Shown: positions 30,000 through 64,000 of the stretch, piece after piece
Position numbering within the stretch: the stretch's first letter is position 1
How the letters are laid out: the number at the start of each line of letters is the position of its first letter
DNA from: Patescibacteria group bacterium
GTDB taxonomy: Bacteria > Patescibacteriota > Microgenomatia > UBA1400 > CG1-02-47-37
Reading direction: 5' to 3'
Length of the DNA stretch: 64,000 nucleotides
Assembly: GCA_034718535.1 (NCBI GenBank)
Contig: JAYEMX010000064.1
Span: 4,328 to 68,327, forward strand
Program-made: the position numbers and the translations under genes
The notes under the pieces: generated by a model
Told to the model about the DNA's origin: nothing
What the model saw: the letters and a program-made list of their open reading frames with translations, nothing else
The model's database searches: none

Positions 30000-30389
30000 T
30001 CAGTGTTTAGATAAGTCATCAAGATAAGATTGAAGGATTATGGTGGCGGCAATTTTATGGTCTTGGCGGCGTTTTTTTTGCGGAGCTTGAGCCTGGATCA
30101 TTTTAATCTTAGCTTCGTAGCTTGATAGGGTTTCGTCTTGGTAGTAAATAGGGAGATTGGCCAACTGACTAAGTTTAGTGGCAAATGTTTTTATTTTTGG
30201 AGCTAATTTTCCTTGAGTAATACCAATAACCATAGCTTCAATTTCATACTCTTTAATTATTTGAAGTAAAAACCGAAATATTTTTTTTCCCGAAAAATAA
30301 GTTTTTTGAGTTAAGGGAAAAGCTAAGGGTCCTTGAGCTAAGCTTAAGCCAAGATGTTTTAGGCCAAAATCTATACCGAGATAGTTCAT
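30000..30389 (-). CDS. ruvX: Putative pre-16S rRNA nuclease / Holliday-junction-resolvase-like YqgF (RuvX); start at MNYLGIDFG
   Basis: N-terminal GIDFGLKHLGLSLA matches the YqgF/RNase H-like fold start. Confidence 0.7.
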   Translation of the reverse strand: MNYLGIDFGLKHLGLSLAQGPLAFPLTQKTYFSGKKIFRFLLQIIKEYEIEAMVIGITQGKLAPKIKTFATKLSQLANLPIYYQDETLSSYEAKIKMIQAQAPQKKRRQDHKIAATIILQSYLDDLSKH

Positions 30390-31171
30390 ATCTCCGATAA
30401 TCTGGCTTTGACTATACCTCGGCGCCAATAAGTTCCGGGAGGAGTACAAGTAACTAAAGTCAGTTCTTTTTGATTATAGTGTTGTTCAAGAATGTTAATT
30501 TCGTCCGGAGCTACTTCGTAATAATCGTAAACCGTGTATTTATAAGAAATGCCATCATAATTAATAAAGACTTCATTTCCATTATCTAGGGTGGGAAGTA
30601 GAGAAAAAATAGCACGATAAGATTGGGGGTTGTAAAACTGAGGTAAAATAGAATGACCAAAGATAACTGAGTTACCGGCCTCCCCCGGATATGCGGTACC
30701 ACCATAATGGATTAAGCTGGTATTAAGGTCATCACCTCCAATAGCCACAACAGCGTTTTTAATTCTTAATCTGGGAATACTTAAAGTATAATGAGTAATT
30801 CTTGATGGAGAAAGAAGAGTTTGGGGTTTAGTAAAATTAAACCAGTTATTAACTTTTGAGTAATTAACAATTGAGTTTTCATTGGTGGTTTGGTTAGCCA
30901 GAACTTGGGGATTATTTGGGGAAATCGGATCTTGGATTGGGCTGATAAATTTGGGTTTTTTAGTACTTGTCATGGTTAGTTCATGAGAAATAATTGGGTA
31001 GCCAACAGAAATTAAAAGAGAGGCACCAACCGTAATCATGATAGTGGGAATTAATTTTTTTAAGTTAAAGAAGAATTGATGTTTTTGATTTTGAATAATA
31101 GTGGTTGGATTTGAGATCGGAGCTTTAGTATAGATAATACTCATATTTATATTATTCTGTTTTGAGCTCAA
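30386..31171 (-). CDS. Sortase-family transpeptidase, membrane-anchored
   Basis: VIFGHS (His) and LTLVTCTP (TLxTC Cys) motifs; N-terminal TM. Confidence 0.75.
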   Translation of the reverse strand: MSSKQNNINMSIIYTKAPISNPTTIIQNQKHQFFFNLKKLIPTIMITVGASLLISVGYPIISHELTMTSTKKPKFISPIQDPISPNNPQVLANQTTNENSIVNYSKVNNWFNFTKPQTLLSPSRITHYTLSIPRLRIKNAVVAIGGDDLNTSLIHYGGTAYPGEAGNSVIFGHSILPQFYNPQSYRAIFSLLPTLDNGNEVFINYDGISYKYTVYDYYEVAPDEINILEQHYNQKELTLVTCTPPGTYWRRGIVKARLSEI

Positions 31172-33347
31172 TTAAAATATTTTTGGTGACACGAGGTAGG
31201 GTTTTTATTTTTTTAGGTAGATTTGGAGTAATGGAAATGTCGGCTTTAATAAAGCTTGGTAGGGTGGCTAAATAATCTTGGATAATGTTAGGATACTTCC
31301 CTTTTAAATTATTTTTAATATCAGTGAAGTCAAGTTTGGGAATTAGTTTTGCCTTAAAATCAACATCAATGGTAGCAGTATTGTTTTGGTTTAAAATGGC
31401 CGGAGCTATTTTAACTTCACTATTTTGACTAATCTCGTAGTTAGAAGGAACTTTTTCTTTTATCGCCTGCTGAAGAAGCAAATTAAGGTCATTTTGATTA
31501 TATGAAAGGGCAGAATATTCTAAATTAGCTTGTAAGGTTAAATTTTTTGTTTCTTCATCAATGTCATGACTAAAGGATTTACTAATTAAGTCATCTTGAT
31601 CTTTAACATCTACTAAAGAAAGTCCTGCTCCTAATTTCTGTTGTAAATTAGAGGCGGCCTGCTCTTTTAAATTAGATGTTAGGGCTAGAAGTAAAGTGGC
31701 TTGATCCTCTTTACTTACGGCTTTAACCTCTCTGGCGATACCACCCGACAAACCATCAATAACTTTGGCTGAGTAGTTATCTTCTGAAAATTGTTTAAAG
31801 CTCATGCTGACACCTGAGGATAAATTGCCATCGGGACCAATTGAGCTGGCGGTGACCTTACCAATGGCTTTACCAAAAGTGATAGTAACACCATCACCTG
31901 TGTCGGTTGATGATGAAGAAGTGGCAGTAATCTCTTCGTCAAGAGTGTACTTTAAGTTATCGGGGCCAATTAAAACAGAGCCGGCTGAAAAAGTTTTAGT
32001 ATTATCGGTTTTGTTATAAATAGTAATATCTCCTTTGGCTGGATCACCGATTAAACTGATTCCGGTAGTAGGAATAGATTTTGAGCCTTTAACTGAAATA
32101 TCAACAGATTCTCCCGGTAAAATACCTTTTTCCGGATCTAAAATAGTAGCTTTAGGGTCAATAGTGAGGGTAAGATTTTCATCAATAGTTTTTGGTTCAA
32201 TATAAAGAATTATATTGGCTTTCGGAATATACCAATAAGCAGAAAAAAGGCCAATAAATAAAGTTATAAAAGCCATACTAATTATGGTGAAGGTTTTGGA
32301 AGTTTTTTTGAATTTAAAAATTGATTTAAGTTTAGAAAATAAATTAGAAAAGGTTTTGAGAAGTTTTGAGAAAAAGCCGATTATTTTTAATTTTAAACCG
32401 AATTTAGGTTTGACAGAATTTGAAACCTCAGTTTGTAGGTCTGGTTCTTTTTTAATTGATGGTGGTAAGGGTTTAGTTAATGGTTTAATATTTTTAGCTA
32501 TATCGGTAGGAGAAAAACCAAAAGATTCAGCAGTGGCTTCTGTTTTTTGGGGGACAGGTTCATGCTTTTTTTTTGGTGAAGGCTTAATATCAAAACCTAA
32601 TGATTTGGCAACTTCACTACCACCAGCAAGGGCAACCGCTTTTATGGAAGCATTTTCAGGCAAACTTTCGACTTTTGGAAAGTGAATAAATGGAAGCTTT
32701 TCCTCCCAGTCATAGGACATTAATTGTTGTTTGTCTTCTTCAAAATCTTTTTTACCATTATAAAGAATCATTCTTGAAGGCAAGGTGTCAATTTTATTAA
32801 ATCTTGACAAGCCTTCTTCAACATCAGGACCCAAATCCCCACTTCTACCAATTAACTTAACGCCAATAATTTTACCAAGTTTAACTAAGGATAGATTAAG
32901 TTCTGAGTCTGATAATCTTAAAAAGATGGCATTTGGAGGGGTACCTTCTTCTATTTTTAAATACTTAATAACGGCGGTATCAGTAACCACAAAGCCAAGG
33001 GGTTTTAATTCAAGTTCTTGACAAATTTTTTTAAGAAGGGCTTTTTTTTCACTCAAAATATCTTCTGATTCTATCCAAGTTTCAGGTAAGCCAAAGATTA
33101 CTCCCGAAGGCTCTTTTTCTAAATTTTTAGAGGCTTTAGAAATAGATTTATCAACGGCATTGAGTAAATTTTCCGAAGTTTTTCCATCCCATTGATTGAT
33201 TGGGCCAATTTTAACTATTTTGGTGTGGCCGTCGAGAACAGTCCAGACTGCGCTTTTGACTATATCGTCACTAATCTCCAAGGCAAAAAATTGCTCTGGA
33301 GCTTCTTCTTTGTTTTTTAATTTAGTGAGCAGATTTTTTAATTCCAT
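31152..33347 (-). CDS. Large membrane protein: N-terminal cytoplasmic FtsA/PilM-like (actin-fold-like) segment, one TM, then a large Ser/Thr/Asn-rich extracytoplasmic domain
   Basis: Residues 20-200 loosely resemble FtsA/PilM N-terminal subdomains; TM FITLFIGLFSAYWYIP. Confidence 0.35.
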   Translation of the reverse strand: MELKNLLTKLKNKEEAPEQFFALEISDDIVKSAVWTVLDGHTKIVKIGPINQWDGKTSENLLNAVDKSISKASKNLEKEPSGVIFGLPETWIESEDILSEKKALLKKICQELELKPLGFVVTDTAVIKYLKIEEGTPPNAIFLRLSDSELNLSLVKLGKIIGVKLIGRSGDLGPDVEEGLSRFNKIDTLPSRMILYNGKKDFEEDKQQLMSYDWEEKLPFIHFPKVESLPENASIKAVALAGGSEVAKSLGFDIKPSPKKKHEPVPQKTEATAESFGFSPTDIAKNIKPLTKPLPPSIKKEPDLQTEVSNSVKPKFGLKLKIIGFFSKLLKTFSNLFSKLKSIFKFKKTSKTFTIISMAFITLFIGLFSAYWYIPKANIILYIEPKTIDENLTLTIDPKATILDPEKGILPGESVDISVKGSKSIPTTGISLIGDPAKGDITIYNKTDNTKTFSAGSVLIGPDNLKYTLDEEITATSSSSTDTGDGVTITFGKAIGKVTASSIGPDGNLSSGVSMSFKQFSEDNYSAKVIDGLSGGIAREVKAVSKEDQATLLLALTSNLKEQAASNLQQKLGAGLSLVDVKDQDDLISKSFSHDIDEETKNLTLQANLEYSALSYNQNDLNLLLQQAIKEKVPSNYEISQNSEVKIAPAILNQNNTATIDVDFKAKLIPKLDFTDIKNNLKGKYPNIIQDYLATLPSFIKADISITPNLPKKIKTLPRVTKNILIELKTE

Positions 33348-35702: not shown

Positions 35703-36845
35703 TTATTGTTTTTGCAATTTTCCTACTGTGATAATAACATCATATTCATTATCATCAGTCAAGGGTGTTTGGTTTTTAATGAGATCATAATCTGAATTTA
35801 GAGATCTTTCTATAATTGTCCAAACAGTTTCCGGAGTATTTGTTTTTAACTGAACAGAGGTTTTTTGGTGATCAAGTTCATCGGCGTTGTCAGCTATGAT
35901 TTCCACAAAGTCTTTGGCCTCTAAAATATCCTTGACTGTGCCAGCTACACCCCTACCTCCAGTACCATTTAGGACTAAAATTTTGTAGTCTGATAGAGTT
36001 ACTTCTATCTCCGGTTCTGGCGAGGGTGAAGGCGAGGGTGAAGGAGTTGGGTTTGGAGAAGCTACTATGAGGGGTGAAGGCGAGGGTTTTAGGTTGTTTT
36101 GCAGAGCATTTCTTTGAACTAAAATACCACCAGTGATGAGGGCGCCTAGGGTTAAGGTGACAATAAAAGCAATGATGAGAGTTTTGTTCGGTTTTGGTTT
36201 TAATTTCTTAGGTTCCGAACTATCCTTCACTTCGTTGCGGACCGCTGGAAGTTCGGAACTTTGAGACTTTGATGGTTTAAGTTTGGTGGGTGATAGTTTT
36301 TTAAGAGAAAGGTTAAGAACTTTTTCGTCTCTACCTTTTAAGTCTTTTTTTAAAGCAAGGCCGATGACTGGATTTGGATTGCGAATTTTTGAGATGGTTT
36401 TTGGTTCGATGGCTTGAAGTTTTAAGTTGGCATCAACAAGAGCTTGAGAGATAAGGGTAAAGATTGATTTGACTGGAGCAAAGGCAATAATTTGTTTGTC
36501 TGATTGAGTTTTTCGACCAGTTTCCTTAAAATCCCAGTTTTCATTTTCTAGAATTTCTGGAATTTCGGGTTTGATTTTTTCTTCGATTAACTTTCGCTCA
36601 TCTTTAACTTTAGTGTTAAAGGGGATGTTTAAACTTAAGACATATGATAATTCATCTGAAAGTAAAATTCTGATTGATTTAGTTTTAAGTTGTTTTTTTA
36701 CCTGAACAAAGGCTTTATCCAAAGAGTCTTTACTCCAAGTAATTTCATCTGACTTAATGATGGCAGGGGCCTTACCTGTCTTAACTAGAACAGCTTTAAG
36801 TTTGTCTTTGGTTAGATAGATGATGGGAATTTTTTTGTTAAACAT
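35703..36845 (-). CDS. Hypothetical membrane protein with a PSPSP linker and a C-terminal LytR_C-like domain; carries an in-frame PAL repeat
   Basis: TM LIIAFIVTLTLGALITGGILV; (SP)n linker; C-terminal segment resembles the LytR/CpsA/Psr C-terminal domain. Confidence 0.35.
   Translation of the reverse strand: MFNKKIPIIYLTKDKLKAVLVKTGKAPAIIKSDEITWSKDSLDKAFVQVKKQLKTKSIRILLSDELSYVLSLNIPFNTKVKDERKLIEEKIKPEIPEILENENWDFKETGRKTQSDKQIIAFAPVKSIFTLISQALVDANLKLQAIEPKTISKIRNPNPVIGLALKKDLKGRDEKVLNLSLKKLSPTKLKPSKSQSSELPAVRNEVKDSSEPKKLKPKPNKTLIIAFIVTLTLGALITGGILVQRNALQNNLKPSPSPLIVASPNPTPSPSPSPSPEPEIEVTLSDYKILVLNGTGGRGVAGTVKDILEAKDFVEIIADNADELDHQKTSVQLKTNTPETVWTIIERSLNSDYDLIKNQTPLTDDNEYDVIITVGKLQKQ
36209..36261. 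repeat. PAL element variant (ggttccgaac...gttcggaac) inside the CDS at 35703..36845
   Basis: Inverted arms with a 30-nt spacer, in-frame. Confidence 0.5.
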
Positions 36846-37334: not shown

Positions 37335-38030
37335 ATGATTATTAGGATGCCATCAAAGAATAGGAATAAAGTTTATAAAGAAAACGGATATTATCATGTT
37401 TATAATCGTGGGGTTGATAAACGAAAAATTTTTATGGATGAACAAGATTATGCTGTTTTTTTGCATTTACTAAAGTATTATCTTTCTCCACCCAGCAAAG
37501 AAGACAAACATCCTTTGTCGGATACTTCTACAGCTGTGATTAGGCCTAGGCCAATTGAAAATTTACATCAAGAGGTTAATTTACTTGCTTATTGTTTGAT
37601 GCCAAACCATTTTCATTTATTGATAAAACAAAAAAGTATTGATGGTATGACAAAACTAATTCATAAACTACTAACTATTTATTCAATGTATTTTAATAGG
37701 CGTCATAAACGTATTGGCCATTTGTTTCAAGGTTGTTATAAGGCAGTTTTAGCTGATAATGACGAGCAGGTTTTGCATCTATCTCGATATATACACCTTA
37801 ATCCAGTTAAGCTGACAGGGTCTGACCCTGTCAGGTGGCCATACTCAAGTTTGGCTTATTATTTAGGGGAGAAAACTGCTAAGTGGGTGAAACCTAAAGA
37901 AATACTTGAGTGTTTTGAAAAGATAGAAAAGAATAAACTAACAAATAAAAACTACAATTCTTATAAAGAATTTGTTTTTGACGATAAAAAAGATTCTAAA
38001 GAAACTGTTGGCAGGTTTTCTATTGATTGA
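37335..38030 (+). mobile_element. RAYT-type HUH tyrosine transposase (IS200/IS605 TnpA-like, Y1). The likely true start is MPSKN at 37347, matching the N-terminus of RAYT-2.
   Basis: YHVYNRG...LMPNHFHLL (HUH)...SRYIHLNPVK (catalytic Tyr); flanked by REP-1 copies and carrying one internally. Confidence 0.8.
37812..37834. repeat. REP-1 palindrome ctgacagggtctgaccctgtcag inside the RAYT-1 CDS, encoding LTGSDPVR
   Basis: Perfect palindrome, in-frame. Confidence 0.7.
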
Positions 38031-54870: not shown

Positions 54871-55048
54871 CTTATACTTGAGGGTGTATACTGAATTTAA
54901 TGCCTTCAAAAAATGCTTTAAAAATCTATAAAGAAGATTCTTATTATCATATTTATAATCGAGGAGTGGCTAAGGCAAATATTTTTAAAGACAAAAAGGA
55001 TTATAAAGTTTTTCTTGATTATTTGAAAATATATTTATCTCCTGTCGA

Positions 55049-55071
55049 CCTACAAGGAGAGTCCTTGAAGG
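55049..55071. repeat. REP-2 copy inside the RAYT-2 CDS (encodes DLQGESLKV)
   Basis: cctacaaggagagtccttgaagg in-frame. Confidence 0.65.
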
Positions 55072-55352
55072 TTTCACCATCAAGAGAATTGAAAAATTAT
55101 TCAGATGAAATTATCTTGGTTGCTTATTGCTTAATGCCAAACCATTTTCACTTATTAATTCATCAAAAAAATAAGGATTCTATTAATTACTTTATGAGAT
55201 CTTTGGCTACAAAATATTCAAGATATTTTAATACTAGATATGATAGGGTTGGCCCATTATTTCAAGGTGTTTATAAAGCTGTTAAGGTTGACAATGAAGA
55301 TCAGTTGGTTTATTTGACTAAATATATTCATCGAAATCCTATTAATATCCTA

Positions 55353-55375
55353 CCTACGAGGAGAGTCCTTGTAGG
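55353..55375. repeat. REP-2 copy inside the RAYT-2 CDS (encodes LPTRRVLVGY), directly after the NPI(N) motif
   Basis: cctacgaggagagtccttgtagg in-frame. Confidence 0.65.
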
Positions 55376-55547
55376 TTATAAATACTCTAGTTATGGAAAT
55401 TACTTGGGATTATTTAAACAGGTCTGGGTAAAGCCAAATATGATTCTTGGATTGTTTTCTGCCTCTAATAAGTTATTTAGTTATAAAAGTTTTGTGGAAG
55501 AATTAGAAGAAGATTATAGTTCTATAAATAAAATTGTTCTTGATTAG

Positions 55548-59089: not shown

Positions 59090-59119
59090 TTGATAGAGCT
59101 ACAAGTAAAATGTTATGAT
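59090..59119 (+). promoter_or_regulatory. Candidate promoter TTGATA-N18-TATGAT in the divergent murJ/rpsT spacer; -10 ends 8 nt before the rpsT ATG, so a leaderless or short-leader mRNA is possible
   Basis: Hexamers read directly. Confidence 0.3.
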
Positions 59120-59126
59120 ACGGGCT

Positions 59127-59369
59127 ATGCCAATAATTAAATCAGCAAAAAAAAAGTTAAAACAAGATAAATTTCGAACGATAGTTAATCTTGTTTATCG
59201 AAACAAAATTAAGAAGACTTTAAAAGAGGCTCGAGAGAAAAAAACAAAAAAATCTTTAAAATCTGTTTATAGTGCTTTAGACCGCGGAGTTAAAAAAAAA
59301 GTGATTCATAAAAATAAAGCGGCTCGATTAAAATCTAGGTTGTCAAAACTGGTAAAGAATAAGGTATAA
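59127..59369 (+). CDS. rpsT: 30S ribosomal protein S20; start at MPIIKSAKKKL
   Basis: S20 N-terminal signature. Confidence 0.85.
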   Translation: MPIIKSAKKKLKQDKFRTIVNLVYRNKIKKTLKEAREKKTKKSLKSVYSALDRGVKKKVIHKNKAARLKSRLSKLVKNKV

Positions 59370-59378
59370 TGTCAGTTA

Positions 59379-59918
59379 ATGGCTGCCCAAAAAAAACAAA
59401 TTAATTTGCTCCCTAAGGATAAGTGGGAAGTTGGAATAGTCGGTAAACTGCTGAAGTGGGCTTTAAATATTGGACGCTATGTAGTGGTTTTTACAGAGTT
59501 GATTGTGATTTCCGCTTTTTTGTTTCGTTTTTCATTGGACAGAAAATTGACGGACCTTCGAAAAGAAATGAAACAGAAACAAGAAGTGGTAGTATTTTAT
59601 GAAGATTTTGAAAGTAGTTTTAGAAAAATTCAGAAACAGTTAGAAAATATAAAAGAAACTAATGCTTCCAGCGTTGATGTTGAGTCGATATTGTTAAATA
59701 TCAGTCAAATTACACCGATTGATACTGTTTATAGCAGGATTAATATTGTTGCGGAAGAAGTTTCTTTGGAGGGAGAAACTTTATCTGAAATTGGTTTGGC
59801 TACTTTGTTGGCAAAAGCTCAAGAAAATAAAAAATTCAGTGAAGTTGTTCTTGAAAGTGTAGCTTCGGCAACAGAAAAAAATCAAGTAATAAAATTTAGA
59901 ATGACTTTAGGTTTATGA
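59379..59918 (+). CDS. pilN: Type IV pilus assembly protein PilN-like
   Basis: N-terminal INLLP motif, single TM, coiled-coil periplasmic part. Confidence 0.65.
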   Translation: MAAQKKQINLLPKDKWEVGIVGKLLKWALNIGRYVVVFTELIVISAFLFRFSLDRKLTDLRKEMKQKQEVVVFYEDFESSFRKIQKQLENIKETNASSVDVESILLNISQITPIDTVYSRINIVAEEVSLEGETLSEIGLATLLAKAQENKKFSEVVLESVASATEKNQVIKFRMTLGL

Positions 59919-60556
59919 AATTTGGGAGCAGATTAAATACCAGCAGAGATTACAATAAATATATAAAAAGATTGCAACAATTGTCTTTAAATCCGGTGGC
60001 AAAAGTATCTGGAATTATCAGTTTAACAATTTTTACAGTGGCATTTTTTGGTATTTTTGCCATTTTACCGACTTTTAAAACAGTTGGTTCTTTGTCTAAA
60101 GAGATTAAAGATATTAAGGAAATTAATCAAAAACTTTCTTTAAAAATTAAGGCTCTGGGGAGTGCCGAAGATATTTATAGTCAAGTGGTAAATGATCTTG
60201 AGTTGGTTAATAAAATGCTACCTGAAACAGCAAGTTTTGATCGTTTGGTTTGGCAGATTGAATGGTTAGCGATGAATACCGAGATTGAATTATCATCAGC
60301 TAATTTTGGAGAATTCCAAATAGTAGGTCCGGAAATAATTGAAAATGATTTGGGTAAAATTGAAGTTGAGCTAACTTTAGTTGGTGGTTATTCACAAATA
60401 AAATATTTTGTTAAAAAATTAAATAGAATTGATAGATTGATTTCAATTAATGATGTTAGAATTGCCAATAAATCTTTTTTAAAAAAAGACAATGATGTTT
60501 CTGCCAACATTAAGTTTAATGCTTACTATTTAACTAGTGATATTAATAATTTATGA
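59915..60556 (+). CDS. pilO: Type IV pilus assembly protein PilO-like
   Basis: Short cytoplasmic N-terminus, TM, coiled coil; follows pilN with a 4-nt overlap. Confidence 0.5.
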   Translation: MKFGSRLNTSRDYNKYIKRLQQLSLNPVAKVSGIISLTIFTVAFFGIFAILPTFKTVGSLSKEIKDIKEINQKLSLKIKALGSAEDIYSQVVNDLELVNKMLPETASFDRLVWQIEWLAMNTEIELSSANFGEFQIVGPEIIENDLGKIEVELTLVGGYSQIKYFVKKLNRIDRLISINDVRIANKSFLKKDNDVSANIKFNAYYLTSDINNL

Positions 60557-60897
60557 TCAGTAAAATTTACGAAAATCAGTTAAAAAATCAATTATTTAAA
60601 TTGTCTCTTATGACAATAATAACGGTAATTATCTGGATCGGATTTGCCACTTATGAAAGTTTATCTAAAAGTAAAATTGGTAAAACAACTCATTTACAAA
60701 TTAAACCCTTGACGGCAAGTCTTGATTTTGACACAATAAAAGATATTAAAAGTCGGGAAAAAATTACCAAAGCAGACTGGGATTCTTTGGTTCCGCAACT
60801 GCCAATGAATTTGGTATTGCCTGATATACCGGGAACCGAATCCGGTCAAATTAATAATAATTTGACAGCCAGTAATAGCGGAGAATTGGAAAAGTAG
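60553..60897 (+). CDS. Hypothetical small membrane protein, coupled to pilO
   Basis: TM LSLMTIITVIIWIGFAT. Confidence 0.3.
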   Translation: MISKIYENQLKNQLFKLSLMTIITVIIWIGFATYESLSKSKIGKTTHLQIKPLTASLDFDTIKDIKSREKITKADWDSLVPQLPMNLVLPDIPGTESGQINNNLTASNSGELEK

Positions 60898-60904
60898 CTA
60901 ATTT

Positions 60905-62239
60905 ATGAAAATGCCAGGATCAAAATTTCATTTTCCAACTGCATTGGGCTTGTTTATATTACTGGTGGCAGTCGGGGTGGGTTTATTTTTAGTTAAAACA
61001 AAAACCGGAGTTAAAATTGGAACAGATGAAAGCTTTATTCCCAAACAAGTAAGAATTACTAATGTAAATGAAACAGGGTTTACTGTTTCTTGGTTAACCA
61101 ATGGCTCAATAAATGGATTGGTAAAATATGGTTCTGAATCTAATTCAATTAAACAAAGTGCTTTAGATGATCGAGATCAGATGACAGGAGAGTCAGGCAA
61201 GTTTGAAGTTCATTATGTAACGGTTAAAAATTTAAGTCCAAGTACTAATTACTTTTTTAAATTAGAATCCGGTAAAAAGCAATTTGATAATAATGGCAAA
61301 CCTTTTGAGATAGTTACCGGAGCAGTTCTTGGAACTCCACCGGCGGCCGATCCGGTTTATGGAACAATTTTATCTAGTTCGGGTTCGGGAGCTGAAGGAG
61401 TAATTGTTTATCTTAATATGCCTAATGCAGCTCCAATGTCTGCTTTGGCTAAAACTAATGGTAATTGGGCTTTATCTTTATCTATGGCAAGAACTTCGGA
61501 TTTAGGTAGTTATTTGGTTTACGATACCCAAGCCACAATGATTAATATTTTGGTTCAAGGTGGAAGTGTGGGTAATTCACCAGTAATTACCACTACCAGC
61601 AATGATAGTCCGGTGCCAGACATTACTTTAGGAAAATCTCATGATTTTAGAGATGTGGTAGATGAAAGTATAAATAATTTAGATGCTTCGACAGATGTTG
61701 ATAGTGAGCCCAGCAATAGTGGTTTTGATTTAGCTCCGGTAGCTAGTGGTAGTGCAATGATTACAGAGTCTGGTGAAATAACTTTGGATAATCCAAGCTT
61801 TGAGGGTGAAATAATTAATGCCACTCAACCGGCTTTTATTGGAACCGGATTGCCGGGAACTGTTTTGTCGATAACTGTAAATTCTCAAAATGCTTATACC
61901 GGCTCTACTACTATTGATGAAGATGGTTCGTGGGAGTTTATTCCTTCCGAAGGACTAGAACCCGGAGAGCATGAGGTAACTGTAAATTATATTGATAGTG
62001 AAGGAGATGAAAAAACTTTGACTAGATCATTTTTGATTGCGGCGGCGGGAGAATCTGAAGTACCGGCAATTACGGCAACTGAGTCCGGAAGTGTGGGGTC
62101 GACTTTATCGGGAAGAACAGAACTACCATCAACTGAATCCGGAGTGCCTGATCCGGGGACGTGGGAGGTAACTTTAATGATGTTATTAACTGGCGTTGGT
62201 TTGGTTTTTGGTGGCGTAATTATTAAAAATAGGATATAA
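60905..62239 (+). CDS. Surface protein with an N-terminal signal-anchor, an FN3 (purple-acid-phosphatase N-type) domain and a C-terminal LPSTE + TM + KNRI sorting-signal-like tail
   Basis: ITNVNETGFTVSWLTNG...HYVTVKNLSPSTNYFFKL FN3 pattern; C-terminal ELPSTESG...hydrophobic...KNRI. Confidence 0.45.
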   Translation: MKMPGSKFHFPTALGLFILLVAVGVGLFLVKTKTGVKIGTDESFIPKQVRITNVNETGFTVSWLTNGSINGLVKYGSESNSIKQSALDDRDQMTGESGKFEVHYVTVKNLSPSTNYFFKLESGKKQFDNNGKPFEIVTGAVLGTPPAADPVYGTILSSSGSGAEGVIVYLNMPNAAPMSALAKTNGNWALSLSMARTSDLGSYLVYDTQATMINILVQGGSVGNSPVITTTSNDSPVPDITLGKSHDFRDVVDESINNLDASTDVDSEPSNSGFDLAPVASGSAMITESGEITLDNPSFEGEIINATQPAFIGTGLPGTVLSITVNSQNAYTGSTTIDEDGSWEFIPSEGLEPGEHEVTVNYIDSEGDEKTLTRSFLIAAAGESEVPAITATESGSVGSTLSGRTELPSTESGVPDPGTWEVTLMMLLTGVGLVFGGVIIKNRI

Positions 62240-62247
62240 CTATTTAT

Positions 62248-63702
62248 ATGGATAATGCCCTGCCGACCGGAACCAATAATAATAAGCAAACCGATGATAC
62301 CCAAAATAAAGTTGATATTGCACCGGCTTCTCCTCCACCTGCACCACCACCTTTAGTTGAGCCGGAAAAACCAGAAGAAATTAAGGGTCCAAATCAAGTA
62401 AAAAAAATTGGGAAAAAGATTAAAAAAAATGGGTTAAAAATAGCCGGCGGTTTAATGATGTTTTTATTAGTGGCTGGAGGATTATTTGTTGGTAGAAATA
62501 TAGTTCAAGAAAGACAGGTGATAGAAAAAGAGGCATATGATCCAGGAGCAAGACGTAGATGTTCTGATATATCTGACATTGATGATTGTGGTAATTTTTG
62601 TCATATAGTTGACGGATATGGGTGTAAAAAAATTAATGGAGAATGTAAGGCCTTTTTAGAACCAGCTTGTAAGAAAACACGAGATAATAGTTGTACAGAT
62701 GAGGATTATACAAATAATACTTGTTGTAACAGCTTTTCGAGTGGTAAATGTGATGGTATTTCTGAAGGAAAACGAGGAGATTGCCCGTCAGGACAAGTTT
62801 GTAAGGCTTATGACCATAAATATGGTAATCCTACTTGTTCTTGTGCAAGCGGTATTCCGCCAGGTATGGATTGTGGATCTAAACCAGATCCATTGCCTGA
62901 GTTTGAAGAAACAGGAAGTATAGGCCCTTTTCCAAGAACTGGGAAATTGGTTGTATATCTTTATGGTGAAAACGGTTTAGGAGATGGTAAGTCTGGTTAT
63001 GCTAGTGGTGTAGAAAAACTTAGATTTGATTATAATGGTGAAGTTACAGATGTTGAATTAAATGGTAGTTCAAAAGAAAAAGTGGTAACAGATATTGTAG
63101 TGCAACAAGGTGATTCTATAATTATTACAGATACTTTTGAGCATGATCAAAAAGCCGGGTGTGCCCCTGATCATAGTTTACCTCATCAAGGAATAGGTTG
63201 GATGCCTATTAATTCAGACAATACTTGTGGGACGGGATTACCAGGACCTCCACAAGGTGGAGTTCAAACTCCTTTTGATACCCCAAGTATACTAGCTGGA
63301 ATAGAATGGGCCGAGAGTCTTGGCAATGAATTATTGGCTAAACAATGTTGGGCAGACTGGAGAGAGTGGCCGGGAGATTATGATTTTGAGGACTATTTTT
63401 TAATGTTTTCTTATGAACCGGCTGATGGTCCAGATAATCCATATTGCGAGGATTTAACTTATTCGGGAAATGAAGATTTTGGTGAAGAGCTTAGCTTTAC
63501 TTGCGTTGGTAGTGGAGATTATTATCGTTTTAGGTATATGATTAATGGTGGCTCCCCCATTCTTATTAATCAAGACAATGTTAATGGCAACACCACTAGT
63601 ATAAATTTAAATGAATATGGTGATTGGTTAGTTCAATGTAAGGTTTGTAATTCTAGTAATGTTTGTACTGTTTGGGGTGAGGCAAATGAAATAGCAAATT
63701 AA
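62248..63702 (+). CDS. Cysteine-rich (>30 Cys) type-II membrane-anchored extracytoplasmic protein with a Pro-rich cytoplasmic N-terminus; unknown function
   Basis: TM IAGGLMMFLLVAGGLFVG; dense Cys spacing (CGNFCH, CCNS, CSCASG). Confidence 0.4.
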   Translation: MDNALPTGTNNNKQTDDTQNKVDIAPASPPPAPPPLVEPEKPEEIKGPNQVKKIGKKIKKNGLKIAGGLMMFLLVAGGLFVGRNIVQERQVIEKEAYDPGARRRCSDISDIDDCGNFCHIVDGYGCKKINGECKAFLEPACKKTRDNSCTDEDYTNNTCCNSFSSGKCDGISEGKRGDCPSGQVCKAYDHKYGNPTCSCASGIPPGMDCGSKPDPLPEFEETGSIGPFPRTGKLVVYLYGENGLGDGKSGYASGVEKLRFDYNGEVTDVELNGSSKEKVVTDIVVQQGDSIIITDTFEHDQKAGCAPDHSLPHQGIGWMPINSDNTCGTGLPGPPQGGVQTPFDTPSILAGIEWAESLGNELLAKQCWADWREWPGDYDFEDYFLMFSYEPADGPDNPYCEDLTYSGNEDFGEELSFTCVGSGDYYRFRYMINGGSPILINQDNVNGNTTSINLNEYGDWLVQCKVCNSSNVCTVWGEANEIAN

Positions 63703-63705
63703 TTA

Positions 63706-64000
63706 TGATAAATAATACACAAAATAATTCTAAAGTTAGTTCAACCCCAATTACTCCCATTTCCCCTATTAATCCCAAAGTTGATAAAGGTGAGAAAAAA
63801 TGGCTATTGTGGGGATTAGTTGGATTTACCGGAATCTTATTGATTACTGCTATTATCTTATTTATTCAACTTAAAAAACCAGTTAAACCAGAAACTCCAA
63901 CAATAAAAGAAACAAGAACAGGGGAGAGTTGTGAAACGGGTGGATTTACTGATGATTTTTCAAATATTGATCTTTCTAAGTGGAGACCTGGAGGTGAGGG
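63706..64000 (+). CDS. Membrane-anchored protein, 5' partial (runs off the window); downstream domain start resembles ConA-like lectin/GH16 N-termini
   Basis: TM LLWGLVGFTGILLITAIILFI; motif FTDDFSNIDLSKW. Confidence 0.3.

Follow-up and report, generated by a model that had tools for sequence, protein, structure and literature searches.

What do the pilus alignment proteins PilN and PilO work with when their genes stand among those of envelope and surface proteins? This question is raised by the 3′ end of a 64,000-nucleotide (nt) stretch of DNA from a Patescibacteria group bacterium (contig JAYEMX010000064.1 of assembly GCA_034718535.1, positions 4,328 to 68,327, forward strand). We call this whole stretch the window, and all positions refer to it unless a locus of a relative is named. 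The window has a GC content of ∼35% and carries mostly housekeeping genes of a bacterium of the candidate phyla radiation (CPR). Near its end, pilN and pilO are followed by a gene for a small membrane protein and by one for a large envelope protein with fibronectin type III (FN3) and immunoglobulin-like (Ig) domains, here named the FN3/Ig protein; two further genes for surface proteins stand behind them. This gene set is a lineage-specific operon of Microgenomatia, found in Candidatus Beckwithbacteria and relatives within the CPR.

A four-gene core behind rpsT

The genes of the operon lie head-to-tail on the plus strand behind rpsT, with a spacing of −4 to +9 nt:

59090-59119, plus strand: candidate operon promoter, sigma-70-like (TTGATA-18-TATGAT with TG), the best match in the murJ/rpsT intergenic region
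59127-59369, plus strand: rpsT, ribosomal protein S20 (PF01649, 2.8e-15), 9 nt 5′ of pilN
59379-59918, plus strand: pilN (PF05137)
59915-60556, plus strand: pilO (PF04350), overlapping pilN by 4 nt
60553-60897, plus strand: small bitopic membrane protein of 114 amino acids (aa), third core gene, recognised by its conserved position
60905-62239, plus strand: FN3/Ig (FN3/Big_13) envelope protein, 444 aa, from Pfam matches and an AlphaFold2 model
62248-63702, plus strand: cysteine-rich (Cys-rich) type II membrane protein, 484 aa, from topology and predicted structure
63705-64000, plus strand: 5′ part of the last operon gene, 98 codons, open at the window end

An earlier note on this DNA had named the same open reading frames (ORFs) from pilN to the last gene, and each was found again at the position given there. 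It had also remarked that no pilM precedes pilN-pilO, which is correct: the upstream gene is rpsT, and beyond it in the window follows a divergent murJ. Because of the narrow spacing, the promoter-like site 5′ of rpsT and the lack of a convincing internal terminator in a sequence scan of the operon, a single transcription unit is the simplest reading, and rpsT is probably co-transcribed with pilN. The number of sigma-70-like sites in the murJ/rpsT region does not exceed shuffled expectation, and the site at 59090-59119 is a consensus match only.

Relatives of the operon were collected from two sides. FN3-ascertained loci were retrieved via homologues of the FN3/Ig protein with 29-78% identity; they take in a complete Beckwithbacteria chromosome as well as metagenome-assembled genomes of Shapirobacteria, Levyibacteriota and UBA1400. 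Since this first set was ascertained through the FN3 protein, contigs from Joint Genome Institute (JGI) metagenomes were also scanned with a PilN alignment, which yielded 80 PilN-ascertained loci with a PilN identity of 39-79%. The order pilN-pilO-small-FN3 was present in all FN3-ascertained loci, down to ∼29% identity, and in 52 of the 52 PilN-ascertained loci (of 80) that had enough downstream sequence. A chance adjacency of unrelated genes is ruled out by these counts, and with synteny kept in every relative examined the gene module proposed in the earlier note proves to be genuine and co-inherited. The gene rpsT lies directly 5′ of pilN in 53 of 62 PilN-ascertained loci having upstream sequence; an AddA-like helicase-nuclease takes its place in one sub-lineage and a co-directional murJ in another. 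Because the core is kept when the upstream gene differs, the inherited unit is the four-gene core and not the rpsT/murJ neighbourhood. Homologues of the operon genes number in the hundreds, and we therefore consider the genes real. The FN3/Ig protein and the Cys-rich protein are each 100% identical to an NCBI protein of a Patescibacteria group bacterium (U9Q63_03170 for the Cys-rich one), and the nearest named relatives belong to Candidatus Beckwithbacteria.

The two core proteins behind PilO differ in size and build. Orthologues of the small protein hold the same position in all loci; a conserved PL(T/N)P.LD segment follows its transmembrane (TM) helix and leads into a disordered tail, and it matches no Pfam or NCBIfam model. 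The FN3/Ig protein, for which 183 homologues were found, matches three Pfam families above the curated cut-offs (given in brackets): fn3 with 28.5 (25), Pur_ac_phosph_N with 41.2 (30) and Big_13 with 51.4 (27) bits. The description as a 444-aa FN3 protein therefore stands. The AlphaFold2 model, built on 69 sequences and with a pLDDT of 81, gives the structure that the earlier note had wished to see predicted, namely three β-sandwich domains between two TM helices. It consists of a TM helix (residues 10-33), an FN3 domain (about 46-137), a second β-sandwich (150-245), a disordered linker (254-289), an Ig/Big_13 domain (300-378), a disordered Ser/Thr-rich part (383-419) and the C-terminal TM helix (420-443). 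The view of the earlier note that the products are anchored, at the membrane or surface, is supported. Fold searches with Foldseek returned tandem FN3/Ig proteins only, for example SiiE, contactins, ice-binding adhesins and S-layer proteins.

Conservation is spread unevenly along the FN3/Ig protein. The domains score 0.68-0.72, the first TM helix 0.69, the second 0.56 and the linkers 0.34-0.36; the highest score, 0.74, falls on residues 403-418 directly in front of the second helix, although this region is predicted to be disordered. In the first helix P11, T12 and G15 are invariant, and in the second the glycines are near-invariant. The conservation of the protein contrasts with its hypervariable neighbours described below, which, as far as sequences can tell, argues for a structural component rather than an adhesin.

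PilN and PilO, probably apart from the pilus locus

Both alignment proteins were assigned by Pfam: PilN matches PF05137 with 2.7e-7 and 30.9 bits (curated cut-off 22.8), and PilO matches PF04350 with 3.7e-11 and 43.8 bits (curated cut-off 22). PilN is composed of a cytoplasmic N-terminus with the sequence KQINLLPKD, one TM helix and an outer PilN domain. Most orthologues keep its N-terminal motif (K/E)x-I-N-L-L-P-K, which is degenerate in those most distantly related; a segment GRYVVVFTELIVI..FL.RF.LDR is conserved across orthologues as well. In characterised systems the INLLP-type motif of PilN binds the cytoplasmic PilM, and to our knowledge this is the only known role of the motif.

A search for pilM, pilB, pilC and pilin genes, which the earlier note had proposed, gave none within the 64-kb window: no signature of PilM, PilB, PilC or PilT occurs anywhere in it, and no prepilin (class III) signal peptide was found in it by regular expression. 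Also, pilM adjoins pilN in no locus examined. CPR bacteria rely on type IV pili for host contact (PMC11623550, PMC6744442), and their genomes are enriched in PilB, PilT, PilC, PilM, PilN and PilO, with PilQ absent (PMC6744442). For a closed genome from the order UBA1400, to which this bacterium also belongs, the complete set of pilus genes, pilM among them, is described at a single locus, where pilN and pilO are not listed (PMC7143001). In the Saccharibacteria TM7x, pilM, pilN and pilO lie together inside pilus loci (PMC11623550). We infer that in the Microgenomatia lineage pilN-pilO parted from the pilus locus and joined other genes. A description of pilN-pilO apart from pilM in Microgenomates was not found in the searched literature.

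Our tentative reading, to which we give slightly less than even credence, is that PilN-PilO of the four-gene core work together with the doubly anchored envelope protein, with hypervariable surface proteins encoded behind. Several observations weigh against it. Neither the window nor any flank examined (∼110 related loci) encodes PilM, PilD, a pilin, a pilus ATPase or a platform protein, and because no pilus gene is nearby, the link to the pilus comes only from the PilN/PilO family assignment and the INLLP motif. For the genes 3′ of pilO no resemblance to PilP or PilQ emerged, neither with Pfam and NCBIfam for the small protein nor by fold search for the FN3/Ig protein. The fold matches of the latter are generic, and an adhesin would explain them no less than a structural stalk.

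The same lack of a pilus gene near the operon in ∼110 loci would fit a recruitment of PilN/PilO-fold proteins to a non-pilus envelope role, for instance in the assembly of the wall, an S-layer or surface glycoproteins. The neighbours of the operon are mostly envelope genes, with murJ upstream and, in relatives, PMT, the 540-aa DUF6798 protein, LytR_cpsA_psr and FemAB genes downstream. However, the murJ/rpsT adjacency also breaks in some lineages, and it carries little functional weight because genes next to housekeeping genes generally keep their order in these genomes. Furthermore, the operon proteins have abundant Pro/Ser/Thr linkers, which are typical O-glycosylation targets, and a transcript shared with a ribosomal protein gene would suggest that expression is constitutive. 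Against such a recruitment, PilN retains the INLLP-type motif, and PilN and PilO both score above the Pfam cut-offs. Pilus genes are moreover widespread in CPR (PMC6744442), and the genome of the same order has pilM without listed pilN or pilO (PMC7143001). We regard the recruitment as unlikely.

C-terminal tails, variable genes and the rest of the window

The C-terminus of the FN3/Ig protein, RTELPSTESGVPDPGTWEVTLMMLLTGVGLVFGGVIIKNRI, contains two features:

62111-62158, plus strand: juxtamembrane motif GRTELPSTESGVPDPG (residues 403-418), defined by conservation across homologues
62162-62239, plus strand: C-terminal TM helix with G.GL..GG, followed by KNRI and the stop codon, from the alignment and the AlphaFold2 model

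The motif conforms to a pattern of the family, R-[TV]-x-[MLQ]-P-[SA]-T-x-x-G-[VI]-P-x-[PS]-G, which 115 of 120 homologues share and in which R, P, T, G, P and G are nearly invariant; it is also kept in 39 of the 41 complete FN3/Ig orthologues of PilN-ascertained loci. Among the 115 sequences the [MLQ] position holds M in 76, L in 21 and Q in 16, and the [SA] position S in 85 and A in 30; the first G is preceded by [SGA]. In the second half V (80) alternates with I (35), and the residue before the last G is P in 85, S in 23 and T in only 3. After the motif come 4-5 residues, a hydrophobic helix of ∼20 residues with G.GL..GG, and then K (91/115) or R (11/115). The earlier note had likened LPSTE, the hydrophobic segment and KNRI to a sortase sorting signal. 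The sequence, the hydrophobic segment and KNRI are all there; what does not stand is an LPXTG-type pentapeptide, as the L at position 1 is not conserved and only 6 of 115 homologues have G at position 5. LPSTE is thus a variant of [MLQ]P[SA]T-x, not an LPXTG pentapeptide.

In order to see how far the tail is shared, a profile of its 44 residues was searched against 1.84 billion representatives and retrieved 117 proteins. All full-length matches are FN3/Ig orthologues, as identified with a tail-less query, and the remainder are short fragments. Because the profile matches only orthologues of the FN3/Ig protein, the extended tail as a whole appears to be a feature of this family rather than a sorting signal common to several proteins. 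Within the 64 kb of the window such a tail occurs on no other protein. The earlier note had named a plain stop-transfer anchor as the outcome that would speak against it; a plain anchor is not what we see, since the tail carries the most conserved linear motif, and the motif was not found elsewhere in the window. No LPXTG, PEP-CTERM or other CTERM/sorting-signal model of NCBIfam matches the operon proteins (E up to 1 for CTERM).

The genes behind the core evolve in a different manner. The Cys-rich protein is built from a disordered part (residues 1-62), a TM helix (63-96), a Cys-rich part predicted with low confidence (97-215), a well-predicted β-domain (220-395) and an FN3-like domain (399-480). 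Its length had been given correctly as 484 aa, and of the more than 30 cysteines formerly ascribed to it we count 23. Among operon orthologues it can be aligned only at the anchor, at the 220-395 domain in some, and over the last ∼85 residues; the middle is replaced wholesale. The domain at 220-395 has no Pfam model and can be recognised by a signature:

62905-63432, plus strand: β-domain of the Cys-rich protein (residues 220-395), signature QCWADWREWPGDYDFEDYF / QCWADWREWPGDYDF[NE]DYF

This domain recurs in surface proteins of other CPR bacteria outside the operon, including Dojkabacteria. At the Dojkabacteria locus L028 (8001-11473) DUF11/CLIPPER proteins with a domain of the 220-395 type end in VPQTG, a TM helix and a basic sortase-type tail.

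Only 98 residues of the last operon protein are encoded in the window, comprising an N-terminal region, a TM helix and ∼35 residues beyond. They match no Pfam or NCBIfam model, and the anchor is homologous to the last-gene products L004_223 (1.5e-17) and L001_205 (4.6e-16) of relatives. The last gene of relatives keeps the N-terminal anchor and an LPxAG tail while the ectodomain is swapped: a WAP-like Cys-knot, DUF11 or Pro/Ser repeats are found there, the match to the WAP-type Cys-knot having an E-value of 0.014, below the cut-off. LPxAG with a hydrophobic C-terminus ends 27 of 32 ORFs (LPEAG 14, LPQAG 7, LPVAG 3, others). A Cys-knot unit of ∼40 residues, for example ITCFDQCTSNTQCSGALKCQAVAGVNRCVNPSCSTESDCVC, occurs singly or in tandem in Cys-rich and last operon proteins of relatives (L004 12757-13428, L004 11341-12753, L006 12085-13152, L007 13001-14044); the weak WAP-type match is the only one that this unit has in Pfam. 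Lectin activity, as implied by the earlier label of the last protein (ConA/GH16-like), is not claimed here; fold searches with operon proteins gave only generic FN3/Ig matches and a weak match to the GH2 N-terminal jelly roll and Ig domains.

The pair of Cys-rich and LPxAG-tailed genes is duplicated in tandem behind the core in some metagenome loci (L035 10856-14841, L071 7504-10667). Also, eight contigs from different assemblies (L003, L009, L010, L011, L012, L014, L015 and L019) stop 89-556 nt past the stop codon of the FN3/Ig gene, early in the Cys-rich gene, and three scaffolds have 100-N gaps in the Cys-rich or the last gene (L001 12563-12662, L002 11800-11899, L017 13158-13257). Such breaks and gaps suggest strain-level hypervariability or repeats in the downstream genes.

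Further 3′ of the operon, relatives carry a PMT-family (GT39) protein O-mannosyltransferase gene on the opposite strand and a gene for a polytopic DUF6798 protein of ∼540 aa, followed by LytR_cpsA_psr (except in L007) and then by UvrD and FemAB genes (L001 13678-17714, L004 13486-17442, L007 14051-16914, L027 10112-13454). The PMT/LytR_cpsA_psr neighbourhood and the Pro/Ser/Thr-rich linkers hint at a possible O-glycosylation of the operon proteins.

The two tail types raise the question whether the C-termini are processed, and one gene of the window bears on it:

30386-31171, minus strand: sortase (PF04203, 1.2e-23)

The earlier note had placed a sortase here, and the family match, together with 55 bits for TIGR01076 against a cut-off of 39, bears this out; the protein has the motifs GHS and TLVTC and scores below every class-specific cut-off. 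It is the only candidate enzyme in the window for LPXTG-like tails and lies, unlinked, 29 kb from the operon. The FN3/Ig protein and the last operon protein might thus be substrates of this sortase, cut at [MLQ]P[SA]T or at [VI]PxxG/LPxAG and joined to peptidoglycan by the C-terminus, with RTELPSTESGVPDPGTW and the LPEAG type as candidate cleaved peptides. As both proteins also have an N-terminal TM anchor, they could be membrane-to-wall tethers or wall-anchored adhesins.

The tail of the FN3/Ig protein is indeed tripartite, with the motif, ∼20 hydrophobic residues and a Lys or Arg (K in 91/115), and [LVI]PxxG stands 4-5 residues before the TM helix both in the FN3 family and in the last gene, where LPEAG, LPQAG and LPVAG prevail. 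Some FN3/Ig orthologues even read LPEVG, VPITG, IPASG or IPSVG at this site. Deviating motifs are known from natural sortase substrates, such as LPKAG and LPAAG (S. aureus SasF and SasD), LPQTxE (L. plantarum) and the pilin motifs VPPTG and LPLAG. However, [VI]Px[PS]G and LPxAG lack Thr at position 4, [MLQ]P[SA]T-x lacks Gly at position 5, and canonical CPR signals, as seen in an alignment of homologues of the Cys-rich protein, differ in consisting of [LIV]P[EQ]TG, a TM helix and a long basic tail. As a point in favour, C-termini of the type [LIVM]PxxG plus TM helix are confined, across 499 kb of CPR sequence, to the two operon proteins, two downstream paralogues at locus L023 with LPKSG or LPEAG and basic tails, and the Dojkabacteria DUF11/CLIPPER pair with its canonical VPQTG, TM helix and long basic tail. 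The LPEAG-type tails match a model of sortase-dependent surface proteins, if weakly (E 0.0088-1.3, far below the cut-off), whereas the FN3/Ig protein matches no NCBIfam sorting-signal model. Most LPxAG tails end in the hydrophobic stretch without basic residues, the extended FN3 tail is limited to one protein family, and conserved glycine positions in a TM helix are unusual for a segment that is cut away. The window contains a sortase, and sortases are reported to be near-ubiquitous in Microgenomates (PMC6744442), but in the 80 PilN-ascertained loci none was found within 8 kb of the operon. On balance we consider sortase processing of the two proteins possible but unlikely.

In many orthologues G-V-P-E-P-G is followed by the TM helix and a basic residue, so the tail could also be read as a PEP-CTERM-like signal of the exosortase/archaeosortase type. 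VPEPG occurs in a part of the FN3/Ig family, with E in 29/115 and the next P in 85/115 homologues; however, the Glu is not conserved and K, T, H and D are common in its place. Furthermore, up to an E-value of 1 no PEP-CTERM/CTERM model of NCBIfam matched, we noticed no polytopic gene resembling an exosortase either in the window or in the flanks, and the signal is not common to many proteins. We therefore regard a PEP-CTERM-like signal as very improbable. A description of the operon or of either tail type (RTx[MLQ]P[SA]TxxG[VI]PxxG plus TM helix; LPxAG plus TM helix) was not found in the searched literature.

Next to the sortase gene, and overlapping it by 20 nt, lies a gene for a 731-aa protein (31152-33347, minus strand) with a cytoplasmic N-domain, a TM helix and an ectodomain of ∼350 aa, for which no family match was found. 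A 380-aa protein (35703-36845, minus strand) is of similar build and has in addition a LytR_C domain. PilM- or FtsA-like N-domains were considered for both and dropped, as Pfam (E up to 10) and a sequence search of the PDB came back empty.

Elsewhere the window carries ribosomal-protein genes, rpoA, rpoB and rpoC, and genes for EF-Tu, EF-G, SecY, FtsK, RNase J, PNPase, NusA, IF-2, DnaK, DnaJ, GrpE, HrcA, LepA and MurJ. Amid the minus-strand housekeeping arrays two IS200/Y1-transposase-like ORFs (PF01797) sit on the plus strand, at 37335-38030 (1.2e-9) and at 54900-55547 (2.1e-11); the site of the latter is occupied by a GH39 gene in L001-L003 and by nothing in L004. Most 2-kb windows, and all from 28 kb on, have a positive GC skew on the plus strand; the cumulative skew ends at 2.2 and shows no lasting reversal. 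This agrees with the single-strand G/C disparity published for the order UBA1400 including Beckwithbacteria (PMC7143001).

A working model and known systems

Family assignment and synteny are the basis of what we propose for the operon; the functional steps beyond them we infer. PilN-PilO would serve as alignment proteins in the type IV pilus machine of the organism, whose pilM, pilB, pilC and pilin genes would lie at another locus. In the membrane, the small protein and the FN3/Ig protein would join PilN-PilO via their TM helices and membrane-proximal segments and would project a β-sandwich stalk, three domains long, into the wall zone. This stalk could fill the envelope-side role that PilP and PilQ have in outer-membrane bacteria, and the juxtamembrane motif may be recognised by a partner or by an enzyme that processes the protein. 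The Cys-rich and LPxAG-tailed proteins would be variable, surface-exposed and made along with the pilus machine.

A bolder version takes the core as the missing envelope-side part of the Microgenomates pilus: a housekeeping sortase or another processing enzyme would cut off the C-terminal helix at the juxtamembrane motif and fix the stalk to peptidoglycan, and the hypervariable proteins would be displayed as host-contact factors. We think this quite unlikely; if true, it would amount to a covalent membrane-to-wall strut around the pilus in bacteria that have pili and no secretin. The operon supplies candidate parts for the CPR pilus machine on the outer side of the membrane, where PilP and PilQ are lacking. 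For one large CPR class it offers strictly co-inherited candidate partners of PilN-PilO, a small membrane protein and a doubly anchored three-domain protein, and in addition two surface proteins from the adjacent genes, which differ strongly between strains, and two types of C-terminal tail.

Several known systems resemble the operon in part. It shares with the type IVa PilM-PilN-PilO(-PilP-PilQ) subcomplex of Pseudomonas, Myxococcus and Thermus the PilN and PilO families, their overlapping adjacent genes and the INLLP-type N-terminus, and the small protein and the β-sandwich protein follow pilO at the positions of pilP and pilQ in diderms. Unlike in type IVa systems, however, pilM is not adjacent, no pilus gene is linked and the large protein is TM-anchored at both ends. 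The lack of an adjacent pilM also sets the operon apart from TM7x, where pilMNO are together (PMC11623550).

With regard to the tails, Gram-positive LPXTG signals are similar in that the motif of the FN3/Ig protein lies ∼35-38 residues from the C-terminus and a Pro motif, a hydrophobic stretch and Lys/Arg follow one another, in a genome that has a sortase. In contrast to those signals, the operon tails have no conserved L-P-x-T-G, the FN3/Ig tail carries two tandem partial motifs, is restricted to one family and has conserved glycines in its TM helix, and most LPxAG tails lack the basic end.

A surface-glycoprotein pathway of GspA, LcpA and sortase in Actinomyces oris is said to have been described by Wu et al. 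in 2014; it reportedly involves an LCP-family enzyme and a housekeeping sortase of the genome. The operon recalls it by a surface protein with an LPXTG-like tail and by the LCP and PMT genes just 3′ of the operon in relatives. There is, however, no relationship in sequence, and the LCP and PMT genes lie outside the window.

Finally, PamR of the CPR Pam pilus is, like the FN3/Ig protein, an envelope protein of fibronectin-III-type domains with a C-terminal TM helix; it was proposed to tether the filament to the membrane, and Pam systems are reported in Microgenomatia (bioRxiv 10.64898/2026.03.03.709456). By the published description, the pam operon differs in that it consists of the chaperone-like PamC/PamD and pilins and has no pilN-pilO. 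What is new in the operon described here is that known pilus alignment genes stand in a conserved novel association.

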